A stretch of DNA of 64,000 bases from NCBI GenBank assembly GCA_021772435.1, contig JAJFLZ010000020.1, forward strand, positions 22,983 through 86,982, written 5' to 3'. Each line of letters begins with the position of its first letter. The first letter of the stretch is position 1. A program made the translations under genes and the position numbers. Below, piece by piece: positions 481-43,248 of the stretch. The notes under the pieces were generated by a model, which searched no databases, was not told the DNA's origin, and saw only the letters and a list, made by a program, of their open reading frames with translations. Origin of the DNA: Chlamydiota bacterium. Lineage in GTDB: Bacteria; Chlamydiota; Chlamydiia; Chlamydiales; JACKPQ01.

Positions 481-933
481 ATGTGGAATAGAGTTTTGAT
501 TATTCTTGGCCGTATACTTATCGCTTATATTTTCATTATTGGAGCCGCGAATAAAATTTTTAATTGGTCTGTGATGAGCGAACACACCTCCGCTATCTTT
601 TCCGACTGGAAAGCGTACTCCACAGGCATTGGCTCACTTGAATCGATTTTTGGCATGTTAGAGCCAATCTCGACCTTCCTTCTTGTGATTGCCACAGTGC
701 TAGAGCTCATCGGGGGCATTTCAGTGCTCATCGGTTTTAGACCGAAATGGGGAACCTTCTGTTTAATTCTATTCTTAATACCGACAACAATCCTTTATCA
801 TCATTTCTGGTTTTTAGAAGGTCAAGTAAGAGAGACTGAGCTTGTTTCATTCATGAAAAACTGCTCGATTTTAGGTGGTCTCTTAATTCTCTGGGCTGCT
901 ACCTCCATGCAAAGGAAATTGCGCAACTTATGA
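481..933 (+). CDS. DoxX-family membrane protein
   Basis: ORF 427..933. The likely start is ATG 481 (MWNRVLIILGRILIAY...) after AAGGAAGGAG. It has about four hydrophobic helices and a DoxX-like ELIGGISVLIGF segment. Confidence 0.55.
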   Translation: MWNRVLIILGRILIAYIFIIGAANKIFNWSVMSEHTSAIFSDWKAYSTGIGSLESIFGMLEPISTFLLVIATVLELIGGISVLIGFRPKWGTFCLILFLIPTTILYHHFWFLEGQVRETELVSFMKNCSILGGLLILWAATSMQRKLRNL

Positions 934-1022
934 ACCTGAATTTCGGGTTTATATCATTCATTTTCAGGCATCTTAGTCGCTATCTTGCACCCTTTTTGTG
1001 CTTGTTACCCAAAACTCAGGTT
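933..1022 (+). mobile_element. MITE-like element, short 90-bp derivative (copy 1)
   Basis: Termini are AACCTGAATTTCGGGTTT...CCCAAAACTCAGGTT. It is flanked by ATG/ATG (930-932, 1023-1025). It matches the ends of the 166-bp copies at 38469 and 42856 and has an internal deletion of about 76 bp. Confidence 0.85.
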
Positions 1023-2507
1023 ATGATGGCTTATTTCCTGATGATTTCAGGAGGGGTATGTGTGCTGCTCTGTCCGCCACTTGCCGGTGTTTTGGGCTAC
1101 GCGCTATTCTGGGTGGGTCTTTTAAAAGCTCCAAAACACGCTTTTTGGAAAGCTTTGATTTGGGGGACACTACTTCTGGCTGTGCAGCTATTTTGGCTAG
1201 CTACCCCTGAGTATCACGGTGGTTTTATCATCGTTGCCTACGCACTAATCTGTTTGCTCATGGGATTGATGTGGGCGGGTTTTTCACATCTTGTAAAAAA
1301 AAATATGCATCCACCCCTTCTCCTCGCTGCTATTTGGACGCTCATTGAATGGGCACGATTGCATCTGCTGTGCGGCTTTGCTTGGGACCACGCTGGAATG
1401 GCGCTGGGAAGCACGATTTGGGGAAGACAACTGGCATCAGTAGCGGGCGTATTGGGGCTGACATTTGTTGTGATTTACACCAATCTTTTGTTTTTAAAAC
1501 ACAAGCGTTCCTGGGCAGTCGCTGCTATTGCTCCTTATCTTTTTGGATTTGCACATCTCGCCTATCACGAAAACAAAATGCAAGATGCACCAAAGGGAAA
1601 AGCGCTCCTCATCCAAACGGGTCTTTTACCTGAGCAAAAAGCGCCATTGCATGGCCGATTAGATACCTTTATCGACCCTTTGCAGCAGTGGAAACGGGTC
1701 ATCACGGATTGGGCGGAAGTCGATTGGATTGTCTTTCCTGAAGCAGCATTTCCCTACGGTGCAAACACGCCCCTATTCCACCAAACGCACATCGACCAAT
1801 TATTTGAAACTACAGACCTTGTCGATCAAAAATGGAGCCATCTCGACATTGCCAAACATATTGCTAAGACCTCAAATGCCGAAGTCATCATTGGTTTAGA
1901 TGACTATGATGAAAAAGGGAACTACAACCGTGTTTTTCACCTCTTGCCAGATGGAACGACCACAACTTGGGATAAGAAAAAGCTTTTACCCATCGCTGAA
2001 TGCATGCCTTTTTCATTTCTCAAACCACTCGCTGCTCGTTATGGCATCACCGAATTTTTCTCTCCAGGAGACACCCAATCTCTTGCAGGCTCAAAAATAC
2101 CACTCACGGCATCTGTCTGTTATGATGAATGTTTCAGCTCAGTCATTCGCCAACCCTACGCTAAACTACACATCAATGTGACAAATGATGGCTGGTATCC
2201 AGGCACCAACCTCAATCGCGTCCATTTTAGGCATGCCAGATTGCGCGCCATTGAAAATGGCATTCCGCACCTGCGTGCTTGCAACACAGGGGTGACAGCA
2301 GCCATCGACAGCCTAGGCCGCACCATTGCTAAATTAGACACAGAAAACCCGGGATACCTCAAAGCGGAATTCCCGCTCTACAGCTACCCTACTCTCTTCA
2401 AGCACTTCGGCAACGCCCCCTTGCTCGCCCTCTGCTTTGCCCTCCTGGCTATCCGAGTTTTAGTCCGTCTTTTCCCTAGATTTACACGTAAATCCCCAGT
2501 CATGTAA
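1023..2507 (+). CDS. lnt: apolipoprotein N-acyltransferase
   Basis: Multi-TM N-terminus plus a CN-hydrolase domain (VFPEAAFP, KKKLLP, SVCYDECF). ORF-track start 930 adds 31 MITE-derived codons, so I prefer ATG 1023 (MMAYFLM...). Confidence 0.85.
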   Translation: MMAYFLMISGGVCVLLCPPLAGVLGYALFWVGLLKAPKHAFWKALIWGTLLLAVQLFWLATPEYHGGFIIVAYALICLLMGLMWAGFSHLVKKNMHPPLLLAAIWTLIEWARLHLLCGFAWDHAGMALGSTIWGRQLASVAGVLGLTFVVIYTNLLFLKHKRSWAVAAIAPYLFGFAHLAYHENKMQDAPKGKALLIQTGLLPEQKAPLHGRLDTFIDPLQQWKRVITDWAEVDWIVFPEAAFPYGANTPLFHQTHIDQLFETTDLVDQKWSHLDIAKHIAKTSNAEVIIGLDDYDEKGNYNRVFHLLPDGTTTTWDKKKLLPIAECMPFSFLKPLAARYGITEFFSPGDTQSLAGSKIPLTASVCYDECFSSVIRQPYAKLHINVTNDGWYPGTNLNRVHFRHARLRAIENGIPHLRACNTGVTAAIDSLGRTIAKLDTENPGYLKAEFPLYSYPTLFKHFGNAPLLALCFALLAIRVLVRLFPRFTRKSPVM

Positions 2508-4061: not shown

Positions 4062-4900
4062 AAAAAACAGAAATTCATCCTACAGCTGTTGTAGAAGAGG
4101 GCGCTCAAATTGGTAAAGGTGTCATCGTGGAGCCTTACGCTATCGTGAAAAAAAATGTCGTCTTAGAAGACCTCGTTGTGATTAAATCTCACGCCTACGT
4201 CGACGGGCATACAACCGTTGGAAAAGGAACGACAATTTTTCCATTTGCAAGTGTTGGCTCAAAAACACAAGATCGTAAATTCAAAGGCGAAAAAACCTAC
4301 GTTAAAATCGGTCAAAATTGTGAAATCCGTGAATATGTCACGATCAACTCTTCTTGTGGAGAAGATAGTTGCGTAACCATCGGCGATGATTGTCTATTTA
4401 TGGCCTATTGCCACGTTGCTCATCACTGCGAGATCGGTAATCACGTCACCATGGCCAACGCTAGTATGCTAGCTGGACATGTGACAATCGAAGACTGTGT
4501 GACAATCGGCGGTATGACAGCCGTGCATCAATTTTGCAGACTTGGAGCGCACTCAATGATTGGTGGGCAAAGTGGCATCGTGCACGACGTGCCACCCTAC
4601 ACTGTGGGTTTTGGAAGTCGCAGATACCGCATCGGCGGCCTTAATTTGATTGGTCTAAGGCGTCGCAAATTTTCTAGAGAAGATATTGCAGCTCTAAATC
4701 AAGCGTACAAAATTACCTATCGTTCCGGGCTGTCTCTAATCGAAGCTCTTGAAAAAATCGAAAATGAAATCGAACCGAATCCATGCATTATACATTGGCT
4801 AAATTTTGCTAGAAGCTCAAAGCGGGGGCTTTCAGGATTGGGGCTCGATGAATCAGCGCCAGATGAGCTAGAAAAGCCGCAAGATCTCGTTAACATTTAA
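4058..4900 (+). CDS. lpxA: acyl-ACP--UDP-GlcNAc O-acyltransferase
   Basis: Hexapeptide-repeat left-handed beta-helix, 280 aa, located between fabZ and fmt. Confidence 0.9.
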   Translation: MKKTEIHPTAVVEEGAQIGKGVIVEPYAIVKKNVVLEDLVVIKSHAYVDGHTTVGKGTTIFPFASVGSKTQDRKFKGEKTYVKIGQNCEIREYVTINSSCGEDSCVTIGDDCLFMAYCHVAHHCEIGNHVTMANASMLAGHVTIEDCVTIGGMTAVHQFCRLGAHSMIGGQSGIVHDVPPYTVGFGSRRYRIGGLNLIGLRRRKFSREDIAALNQAYKITYRSGLSLIEALEKIENEIEPNPCIIHWLNFARSSKRGLSGLGLDESAPDELEKPQDLVNI

Positions 4901-5820
4901 TGCGCATTGTCTTTTTCGGCACACCTACTTACGCCGAGCACATTTTAAATTACTTAATTCAACAAAAAGCAAATATCGTTGCTATTGTGACGCGTCCCGA
5001 TAAGCCCAAAGGCAGATCGCGTAAAATGCAGTCGCCACCTGTTAAAGTGCTAGCTGAGCAACAGTTGCCAGGGATCCCTATTTATCAACCTGTCAAAGCA
5101 TCGACACCGGAATTTGCTGAAACACTCAAAGCGTTAAATGCTGACCTGTTTGTCGTAGTCGCTTATGGAGAAATCATCAAACAATTTTTGCTCGATGTTC
5201 CATCTAGCGGATGTATCAATGTGCATTTTAGCTTACTTCCAAAATGGCGAGGAGCCGCGCCGATGCAACATGCGTTAATGGCTGGAGACCTAGAAACAGG
5301 TGTTTCGATTATCGAGATGGTTCTTGCGATGGATGCTGGTGATATTTTGGGAGAAGAAAAAATCTCGATTCCTCCCGAAATGACATGTGGAGAGCTTGCT
5401 CAAAAGCTTTGTACGATGGCCGGGCCGCTCTTAACAAAAGTCATTCAAAGCATTGAAGACAAAACAATAGAGCCGAAAAATCAAGATCCGGCGGGTGTTA
5501 CCATGGCGCCAAAAATTGCGACTGCTGATGCTAAAATCGATTGGGAGAAAAGCGCTCAAGAAGTGCATAACCAGGTGAGGGCCCTAAACCCAGCACCTGG
5601 GGCTTGGTGTGAAGTTTTGGTAGGTGATCAAACCAAACGACTTAAAATATTGCGCACGCAAGCCAATCCTGGAGTGGTAAATAAATATTTGAAAGAAGCC
5701 TGGTATGAGTCTTGCGGCACTGAATCTATTCAGATTTTGGAGATACAGCTCGAGGGCAAGCGCGCAATGACAACTAAAGAATTTATTGCTGGTGTGCATA
5801 AATTAGAAATTGTCAAATAG
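4900..5820 (+). CDS. fmt: methionyl-tRNA formyltransferase
   Basis: MRIVFFGTP..., HFSLLPKWRGAAPMQHAL. Confidence 0.92.
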   Translation: MRIVFFGTPTYAEHILNYLIQQKANIVAIVTRPDKPKGRSRKMQSPPVKVLAEQQLPGIPIYQPVKASTPEFAETLKALNADLFVVVAYGEIIKQFLLDVPSSGCINVHFSLLPKWRGAAPMQHALMAGDLETGVSIIEMVLAMDAGDILGEEKISIPPEMTCGELAQKLCTMAGPLLTKVIQSIEDKTIEPKNQDPAGVTMAPKIATADAKIDWEKSAQEVHNQVRALNPAPGAWCEVLVGDQTKRLKILRTQANPGVVNKYLKEAWYESCGTESIQILEIQLEGKRAMTTKEFIAGVHKLEIVK

Positions 5821-5853
5821 CACTCTTTACAATAACTTTAATTTTCTGTATAA

Positions 5854-6525
5854 TTGAAGCATATGGTTAAATTATTACCTATTACTTCTGAAAGTTCGCA
5901 AAAATGGTTGAAAATTCCTGAACAATTTTCTGCTGATATGGCTGATGTCGTTTTTGATCTAGGCGTTGTTACCATCAGTTGGTTTAAAAGGCTGGACCCC
6001 GCGGCATTCGATGATGCTTGCACAGTCGTCAACCTGACTAAATTACAAGGGATTTTGGGACACGGCAGTGATTTAACCCACGTTTTAGCTTTTCCAGGCC
6101 GCATCAATGGCGTTTTGAAAGCTGAAAACAGTTTTGAGCTTATAAAATCATCACTCCGTCTGTCTAGAACCGTCGCATCAATTGCCAAAATATTATTTGA
6201 TCACGCCGTGATCATCTCTCCTAAAGGTCAATTTATTGCAGGCCGCGTCAAATACGTCACTTGGGCGTTTTCAGGGGCTATCACAGTAGGCGAAAGGCTA
6301 TACGCTTTCTACGATCCGTCAGAGGAAGAAAAGTTGAATGGCAAAGGCTTGCTGATGCTCGACTTAGTCAAATCCACGGCCTTTTTGGCCTTGGGCATTT
6401 TGCGCTTATTAGACAAACCCGAGCTACGCCGCTACGTCTTGCCGCTTAGTACAATTCTTTTGATTTTAGCATCGGTCACATTCACAGGCAAAAAAATGAT
6501 TAAGGCGCAAAGCGATAATGCATAA
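5854..6525 (+). CDS. hypothetical membrane protein (Inc-like candidate, in the slot syntenic with CT529/Cap1)
   Basis: 223-aa ORF with a C-terminal hydrophobic stretch LLMLDLVKSTAFLALGILRLL...LPLSTILLILASVTFTG. No recognisable domain. Confidence 0.5.
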   Translation: MKHMVKLLPITSESSQKWLKIPEQFSADMADVVFDLGVVTISWFKRLDPAAFDDACTVVNLTKLQGILGHGSDLTHVLAFPGRINGVLKAENSFELIKSSLRLSRTVASIAKILFDHAVIISPKGQFIAGRVKYVTWAFSGAITVGERLYAFYDPSEEEKLNGKGLLMLDLVKSTAFLALGILRLLDKPELRRYVLPLSTILLILASVTFTGKKMIKAQSDNA

Positions 6526-25038: not shown

Positions 25039-25123
25039 GCTCGGGTGGTGGAATGGTAGACACAAAAGACTTAAAATCTTTTGGGGAGTAATCCCCGTGC
25101 GGGTTCGAGTCCCGCCCCGAGCA
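25039..25123 (+). tRNA. tRNA-Leu (anticodon UAA)
   Basis: Acceptor stem GCTCGGG/CCCGAGC. Anticodon stem AAAGA/TCTTT with loop CTTAAAA. Long variable arm GGGGAGTAATCCCC. T arm GCGGGTTCGAGTCCCGC. CCA is not encoded. Confidence 0.9.
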
Positions 25124-42731: not shown

Positions 42732-42747
42732 AGTATATGCAAAAAAT

Positions 42748-43248
42748 GTGGGAAAGGGATAAGCCGGATTCTGTGTTTGGCAATCATTCCTCTAGGGTGG
42801 GTATTGCTACCACATCTCAAGCGTTTATTGAATCAAATAAGCGGACAACTTTAGTAACCTGAATTTCTTCGTTTATATCACTTATCTTCAGGCATTTTAG
42901 TCGCCATCTTGCACCCTTTTTGTGCTCATCTATAGCTTTTGGCTATCGAATCGCAAAAAATGGCACAATCTGTCACCTAATCTGCTCTGAATCTAAATAA
43001 TCTAAACCCGAAACTCAGGTTAGTATTTAATTCTCTTGCTTCGGATAGGGTTTACAGGCAAGGATTATTACTAACACCTTGGCTTGATCTCAAATCAAGC
43101 GTTTTCAGTCTATCTACTAAAAGAAGTAGCGAAATGTTTTCTGTTGCACTTTCCGTAGCCTTACGGCCCCCAGTCTTTCACTGGTATCCTGTCCTGTGAA
43201 GTCCAGACTTTCCTCTGCAAAAATTGCAGCGATTGCCTCCTTTCCCAC
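42748..43248 (-). ncRNA. rnpB: RNase P RNA (bacterial type A) interrupted by a 166-bp MITE
   Basis: The minus strand reads GUGGGAAAGG...GAGGAAAGUCUGGAC...AGUGCAACAGAAAAC...GUAAACCCUAUCCGAAGCAAG...[insert]...ACAGAAUCCGGCUUAUCCCUUUCCCAC. It has universal RNase P signature blocks and P1 pairing of the ends. Confidence 0.85.
42856..43021 (+). mobile_element. MITE-like element, 166-bp copy 3 (inside rnpB)
   Basis: Termini AACCTGAATTTCTTCGTTT...AAACCCGAAACTCAGGTT, flanked by AGT/AGT (42853-55, 43022-24). Confidence 0.88.

Follow-up and report, generated by a model that had tools for sequence, protein, structure and literature searches.

The stretch of DNA analysed here, referred to as the window, comprises 64,000 nucleotides of a Chlamydiota bacterium genome (GenBank assembly GCA_021772435.1, contig JAJFLZ010000020.1, positions 22,983 to 86,982, forward strand), and near its start a short mobile element, a MITE (for miniature inverted-repeat transposable element), lies at the junction of a doxX-like gene and an lnt gene. 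The doxX-like gene occupies 481..933 on the plus strand and encodes 150 amino acids from ATG 481, and its TGA stop at 931-933 is unaltered by the insertion. The same gene as called in a second assembly matches the Pfam family DoxX (PF07681). Also on the plus strand, the lnt open reading frame (ORF) as it is now read extends over 930..2507 and encodes 525 amino acids, the ancestral form being 1023-2507 with 494 amino acids. The protein of ORF 930-2507 begins MNLNFGFISFIFRHLSRYLAPFLCLLPKTQV-MMAYFLM, contains the Pfam domains LNT_N (PF20154) and CN_hydrolase (PF00795), and matches solved Lnt chains in the PDB with E = 2e-14.

The 90-bp element is located at 933..1022 on the plus strand, with ATG on both sides (930-932 and 1023-1025), and the junction reads ...GCGCAACTT ATG, followed by the element (AACCTGAATTTCGGGT...ACCCAAAACTCAGGTT) and then by ATG ATGGCTTAT... 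on the lnt side. Its left terminal inverted repeat (TIR) at 933..948 pairs with the right one at 1007..1022, both on the plus strand, over 16 nt at 88% complementarity. Because the element starts with A and ends with T, two readings of the target duplication are possible: it is 3 bp long (ATG) if the element is taken as 90 bp, and 5 bp long (TATGA, at 929-933 and again at 1022-1026) if the element is taken as the 88 bp ACC...GGT. Either way 93 nt were added, and the pre-insertion sequence comes out identically as AACTTATGATGGCT. We show that a non-autonomous element of a MITE family inserted at T-ATG-A, where the TGA of doxX overlapped the ATG of lnt, and that each gene regained its own signal via the target duplication, the left copy providing the doxX TGA and the right copy (1023..1025, plus strand) the ancestral lnt start codon, ATG 1023. 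The left copy (930..932, plus strand, or 929-933 in the longer reading) is now also an upstream start codon, in frame with lnt and overlapping the stop of doxX. As the preliminary description had proposed, the insert and its duplication together amount to 93 nt, are free of stops in the lnt frame and add 31 codons, as seen both in the sequence and in the ORF. A second, independent assembly of the reads (Logan SRR15505513, L001) is 100% identical to the window across 11.9 kb and has the insert. At 929-953, the tip of the left repeat forms a small hairpin (AACCTGA/TCGGGTT) that is followed by a T-rich run. The terminator-like score of this hairpin was no more frequent than in shuffles, and the hairpin could attenuate read-through from doxX into lnt.

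The doxX-lnt loci of three relatives (L002, L003 and L004) were compared with the window. The two genes overlap by 4 bp in each of them (doxX 4552-5004 with lnt from 5001 in L002, 2552-3004 with 3001 in L003, and 12-467 with 464 in L004), which agrees with the earlier proposal that the insert sits on an ATGA stop/start overlap. Their doxX orthologues are 150-151 amino acids long. When the four loci are aligned, ATGA is present in all three relatives and a single clean 93-bp gap faces the insert of the window; in L003 the site reads TTATGA. The N-termini of the relatives' Lnt proteins (MIA... or MTA...) align at Met32 of the window protein, which is ATG 1023, and the homologues P0003, P0004 and P0006 begin with the Met in this column. 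Identity to the closest Lnt homologues is 53-73%, and the 31-residue N-terminus, which would be expected in relatives if it were an old part of the protein, is absent from every homologue aligned. Because the relatives show a clean ATGA site, the insertion is derived, precise, and located on the stop/start overlap. An empty-site allele of the same species was also sought in metagenomes with the 23-mer GCGCAACTTATGATGGCTTATTT, which gave 0 matches. In L002, the closest relative with a fetched locus, lnt at 5001-6480 is called as two ORFs of 341 and 167 amino acids, and lpxC, fabZ and lpxA are likewise fragmented. These gene breaks look like frameshift errors of a long-read assembly and not like biology.

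The left 23 nt of the element have a second match within the window, where 0 would be expected from 100 shuffles, and a BLAST search of the element against the window revealed two further, longer copies. One is a full-length copy of 167 bp at 38469..38635 on the plus strand, flanked by the duplication AAT, and the other a full-length copy of 166 bp at 42856..43021, also on the plus strand, flanked by AGT (ACT on the minus strand) and located inside the gene for RNase P RNA. The lnt copy aligns with these in its left 70 bp and in its final 16 bp, the outer part of the right end, with 76 internal bp missing; judged by this alignment, it is an internal-deletion derivative of a family of about 166 bp. 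The census of the family in the source organism covers the window. A scan with a 21-mer core, in which each species was represented by one genome, found 12 copies, with about 89% identity to those of the window, all of them in a single metagenome-assembled genome (MAG), Chlamydiales bacterium HK-STAS-VERR_A-4. This is a different organism, with about 78% DNA identity to the source in shared genes. One copy, flanked by TAATA on both sides, was found in a third chlamydial genome (a 1.59-Mb contig, L041).

Direct repeats flank all 14 complete copies and the L041 copy, and their sequence differs between copies; they measure 3-6 bp if the element is taken as AACC...GGTT and 5-8 bp if it is taken as ACC...GGT. 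None of the copies (90 bp, 166-167 bp) contains a transposase gene, and in most of them all six frames are interrupted by stops. Taken as RNA, a full-length copy folds into a single long hairpin (-64.8 kcal/mol, z = -10.4), and no known RNA family was detected in the element by Rfam at gathering thresholds. The family thus combines small size, lack of a transposase, TIRs, duplications of varying sequence, dispersed copies, and both filled and empty sites (at lnt and at rnpB), as is characteristic of MITEs. The preliminary description had already assigned the element to this class and had tied the assignment to the existence of further copies; it stands, with TIRs, target duplication, no coding capacity, two more copies in the window and others elsewhere, so that there are many copies in at least three chlamydial genomes. 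An IS630/mariner-type TA duplication was ruled out, as the lnt copy has GA on its left and the direct repeats reach 5 bp or more. A TIR-like match in L005 (3361-3384) lies inside a coding region and was dismissed as chance. The copy at 38469-38635 reaches to 4 nt before the called ATG (38464) of the minus-strand ORF 37757-38464, and because it lies so close upstream, any ribosome-binding site of that ORF would fall in the terminal repeat of the element.

A scan of metagenomes with the 22-nt terminus of the element returned 24 loci (L017-L040). In several of these contigs the terminus, AACCTGAGTTTTGGGTTTTTAT, adjoins transposase genes of the IS982 family: the ORF of L039 scores 262.8 bits against the IS982 model NF033520 (cut-off 130), and C-terminal coding ends adjoin the terminus in L017, L019, L028 and L035-L038. 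The L039 element is 1025 bp long and has no clear duplication of its own. Members of the IS982 family are described in ISfinder as elements of about 1 kb with ends starting AC and short duplications of variable length, and the MITE ends read ACC...GGT with duplications of 5-8 bp. On the sequence of its ends, the most fitting description of the family is that of a MITE with 22-nt termini of the IS982 type, and it is presumably mobilised in trans by a transposase of the IS982 type. The terminus AACCTGAGTTTTGGGTTTTTAT is common to otherwise unrelated elements, occurring in insertion sequences of the IS982 family (L039) and in MITE-like elements of about 160 bp (L024, L026, L032). Many of the matches lie at contig ends, as expected of repeats that break assemblies.

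An IS4-like element of 1.4 kb (L022, L041) was considered as the autonomous parent and rejected. It at first appeared parent-like, with about 80 bp on each outer side matching the MITE arms at 83-86%, and it encodes a DDE_Tnp_1 transposase with a Y-2-R-3-E-6-K motif, whose best NCBIfam match is IS4_2 at 146 bits (cut-off 152). The element has inner TIRs of its own (CTCACCACCTATCAGTTT...) inside the MITE arms, and in L041 a 10-bp direct repeat, CGCCTACGGC, is found on both sides of it within the MITE copy. Because these TIRs and the 10-bp duplication lie within the MITE arms, the IS4-like element is not the parent but sits nested within a MITE copy, in its central loop. A transposase related to it at 45% is found in L047; its element is 1223 bp long, has TIRs of a matching kind (22-bp repeats, CTTAGCGCCTATCAGTTTCAAG) and is flanked by a duplication of 9 bp. 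Elements of IS4 proper have a duplication of about 10 bp and the YREK motif (De Palmenaer et al., PMC2266710). The composite of IS4-like element and MITE occurs at L041 2847-4241 and at L022 745-2143, two loci from two samples; its IS4-family part is about 1.2 kb, and the arms of the L022 composite are symmetric across 110 bp.

Of the frames that lead into the element, one meets TGA at element positions 5-7 and another forms TAA if the flank ends in T, leaving as the sole open frame the one that reads AAC CTG ..., which is the frame set by ATG 930. The length of element plus duplication is divisible by three in only one of the 14 complete copies, the lnt copy, and the ATG 930 frame is without stops in two (the lnt copy and the copy at 38469). 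The HK-STAS copies have at least two stops in this frame, two of which fall within the stretch missing from the lnt copy. ATG 930 is therefore fused in frame to lnt because the loss of 76 bp gives 93 nt that are read in the stop-free frame. Such an in-frame, stop-free remnant would fit selection, for which a single sequence is at most suggestive, and the deletion may have come before or after the insertion.

Judging from the signals around the two candidate starts, Lnt is on balance likely to be produced, wholly or mainly, as the 525-residue form from ATG 930. The ancestral layout of lnt, which is kept in L002, consisted of ATGA coupling together with an AAGGAA motif 13 nt upstream. Both the overlap and the motif now belong to ATG 930, which is favoured because they are retained there. 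Ribosomes ending at the doxX TGA would re-initiate at the overlapping ATG 930, as they would have done before the insertion, and some initiation at ATG 1023 or 1026 may happen too. Shine-Dalgarno (SD)-like pairing was -5.8 kcal/mol upstream of 930 and -3.2 kcal/mol upstream of 1023 and of 1026, as scored against a generic anti-SD sequence (the window has no 16S gene); the reference medians are -3.8 kcal/mol for genes and -2.1 kcal/mol for random positions. The doxX start, ATG 481, has a strong match (AAGGAAGGAG, -9.4 kcal/mol). The fold of minimum free energy has the TIR stem closed at its base by pairing of 1021-1026 with 928-933. A promoter within the element that drives lnt was also considered and discarded, as no promoter-like site facing lnt was found inside the element.

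The 494-residue body of Lnt is intact, of full length and 41-73% identical to its homologues, and E271, K349 and C397 stand in conserved Lnt columns. The 31-residue extension has three K/R residues, one H and no D/E, and its maximum Kyte-Doolittle value over 19 residues is 1.26, compared with 2.08 for the first transmembrane segment (TM1) and a usual threshold of 1.6, so that the extension falls short of the continuous hydrophobicity of a membrane helix. An AlphaFold model of the 525-residue form, with a mean predicted local distance difference test (pLDDT) score of 66 and values below 50 for residues 1-47 except 10-11, is uninformative on the extension. In E. coli, the N-terminus of Lnt is cytoplasmic and basic, as its structures show. 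By alignment with the E. coli protein, the extension would form a basic tail on the cytoplasmic side before TM1, with the enzyme remaining functional; a tail of this kind is compatible with the topology of Lnt and should be tolerable.

Several observations weigh against parts of this account. The AAGGAA motif is 13 nt from ATG 930, a longer spacing than optimal, and an AGGT lies 4 nt before ATG 1026, where it could support some direct initiation. The hydrophobic runs FGFISFIF and YLAPFLCLL in the extension could disturb membrane insertion, and, as to the mobility of the family, neither the window nor the 12 HK-STAS loci yielded an IS982 transposase. The same insertion could instead leave Lnt to be made from ATG 1023 or 1026, with the 31 upstream codons untranslated or giving a minor product, and the element would then have uncoupled lnt from doxX and may lower lnt expression. 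We regard this as possible but doubtful. The AGGT motif fits it, every homologue starts at that Met, and ribosomes finishing doxX would melt the stem between 928-933 and 1021-1026 and so expose the downstream ATGs; however, the SD-like match there is weak, near the 25th percentile of random positions, the element offers no promoter-like site, and ATG 930, which is in frame, overlaps the stop in the manner of the ancestral start, so that re-initiating ribosomes would read through 1023.

That the insertion damaged lnt, with the protein misdirected or its translation failing, so that the gene is being lost from a lineage in which Lnt is dispensable, appears very unlikely. Lnt is dispensable in some bacteria, and the hydrophobic runs in the extension would suit such a loss, as would the split lnt of L002, albeit in an assembly with many broken genes. 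Against it stand the intact full-length body and its conserved catalytic columns, and a gene that had ceased to matter would have come by an in-frame, stop-free insert only by coincidence. Less probable still, and effectively refuted already, is the view that the 93 nt were present ancestrally and disappeared from the relatives, or that they are an artefact of assembly. The insert is indeed carried by a single genome only, but the segment belongs to a dispersed repeat family with TIRs and duplications, the identical precise ATGA junction recurs in three relatives at different distances, and two assemblies concur.

The target sites of the family were reconstructed by removing the element and one copy of the duplication. 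In six of the 14 cases the reconstructed site overlaps the stop of an ORF of at least 100 amino acids (the lnt site, L005, L006, L011, L014 and L015), and in two of these, L014 and L006, the element is directly bordered at either end by convergent genes. For non-coding positions of these loci, about 1-3% would be expected to lie that close to a stop, which gives a binomial p of about 1e-7 to 1e-8. At the L011 junction TAG was changed to TAA at the same position, and the element ends regenerate stops. A preference for TA-rich pentamers combined with purifying selection, the two being inseparable here, would explain the association with stop codons. The QMITEs of Coxiella are comparable in overlapping the 3' ends of genes slightly (PMC5896051). 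A broader and more tentative proposal, which we consider rather unlikely, is that this is a boundary-seeking MITE that settles on stops and stop/start overlaps as a general strategy of persistence, and that the 90-bp form was selected after insertion. A preference for TA-rich target pentamers such as TAGTA, TAATA and TATGA would then, together with the termini (T|AA junctions and TGA at positions 5-7), let it land precisely at such places and regenerate host signals, the in-frame 90-bp form would have been selected to restore the translational coupling of doxX and lnt, and a peripheral helix of RNase P RNA would be covered as a landing site too. If this proposal is true, the lnt case is one outcome of transposon persistence in an intracellular genome that is dense with genes.

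The RNase P RNA gene, rnpB (RF00010), lies at 42744-43248 on the minus strand and is 505 nt long, matching the full Rfam model with 198.9 bits. In this match the whole 166-bp MITE copy at 42856-43021 stands unaligned, as a single insert that separates model positions 245 and 246 in the P15-P17 region. In three relatives rnpB, located via conserved synteny with a zinc-ribbon gene, measures 331-339 nt and is without the insert. In those bacteria in which its essentiality has been tested, the gene is essential. Read on the rnpB strand, the insert gives a single hairpin (-64.8 kcal/mol), and it probably adds a long extra hairpin to a peripheral part of the RNase P RNA.

That small repeats can be fused in frame with ORFs is well documented, with RPE, BOX, ERIC, QMITE and, at operon junctions, MIRU among the examples (PMC3184786, PMC10969869, PMC5896051), and the lnt event is a new, unusually clean example of this known kind of event and not a new principle. 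The Rickettsia palindromic elements (RPE) are likewise short palindromic mobile repeats of an obligate intracellular host that stand in frame in genes, adding a peptide while the gene is kept (PMC10969869, PMC3184786). They have no sequence relationship to the present family, however, and in-frame insertion with a conserved peptide is their rule, whereas here one of 14 copies is in frame, after internal deletion, and the extension is N-terminal and not internal; family-wide in-frame insertion and a conserved peptide are not features of the present family. The MIRU of mycobacteria are small repeats between the genes of polycistrons whose ends overlap the flanking stop and start codons and which have a short ORF inside (PMC3184786); they are not homologous, and their ORF is a separate mini-cistron, unlike the element frame fused here to the downstream gene. 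QMITE1 and QMITE2 of Coxiella burnetii are also MITEs of an intracellular bacterium and overlap the 3' ends of genes by 1-50 bp, and at enhC of the Dugway strain a QMITE gives an in-frame extension of 33 residues (PMC5896051). In contrast to the lnt copy, these overlaps are C-terminal, and the parent elements and duplications are different (direct repeats of 7-11 nt for QMITE2) (PMC5896051). MITECca01 of Cardinium, which we liken by description, is a MITE of an intracellular symbiont, has inverted repeats that match an element of the IS982 family and is presumed to be mobilised in trans; it differs in being about 240 bp long and mostly intergenic or in other mobile elements, with no insertions in start codons or RNA genes reported (PMC9769881). 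Among the 9 papers that a full-text literature search found to mention MITEs as well as Chlamydiae, none describes a chlamydial MITE family.

The lnt locus offers a fully reconstructible case in which a transposon duplicated the start codon of a translationally coupled gene pair and left both genes intact, with the downstream enzyme, Lnt, given a new N-terminal tail in its ORF. It also poses an annotation problem, in that public gene calls list the 525-residue form only and the ancestral Lnt has 494 residues. The family itself is present in at least three environmental chlamydial genomes. The association with stop codons and the insertion in rnpB would outweigh the lnt case if upheld genome-wide, and they bear on the survival of mobile DNA in compact genomes and on the load of foreign RNA that a ribozyme can carry. 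Elsewhere in the window, a tRNA gene at 25039-25123 (Rfam, 62.4 bits) belongs to 86 nt that are 100% identical to a stretch of L011 from the HK-STAS MAG, and the DNA around this match is only about 78% identical between the window and L011.

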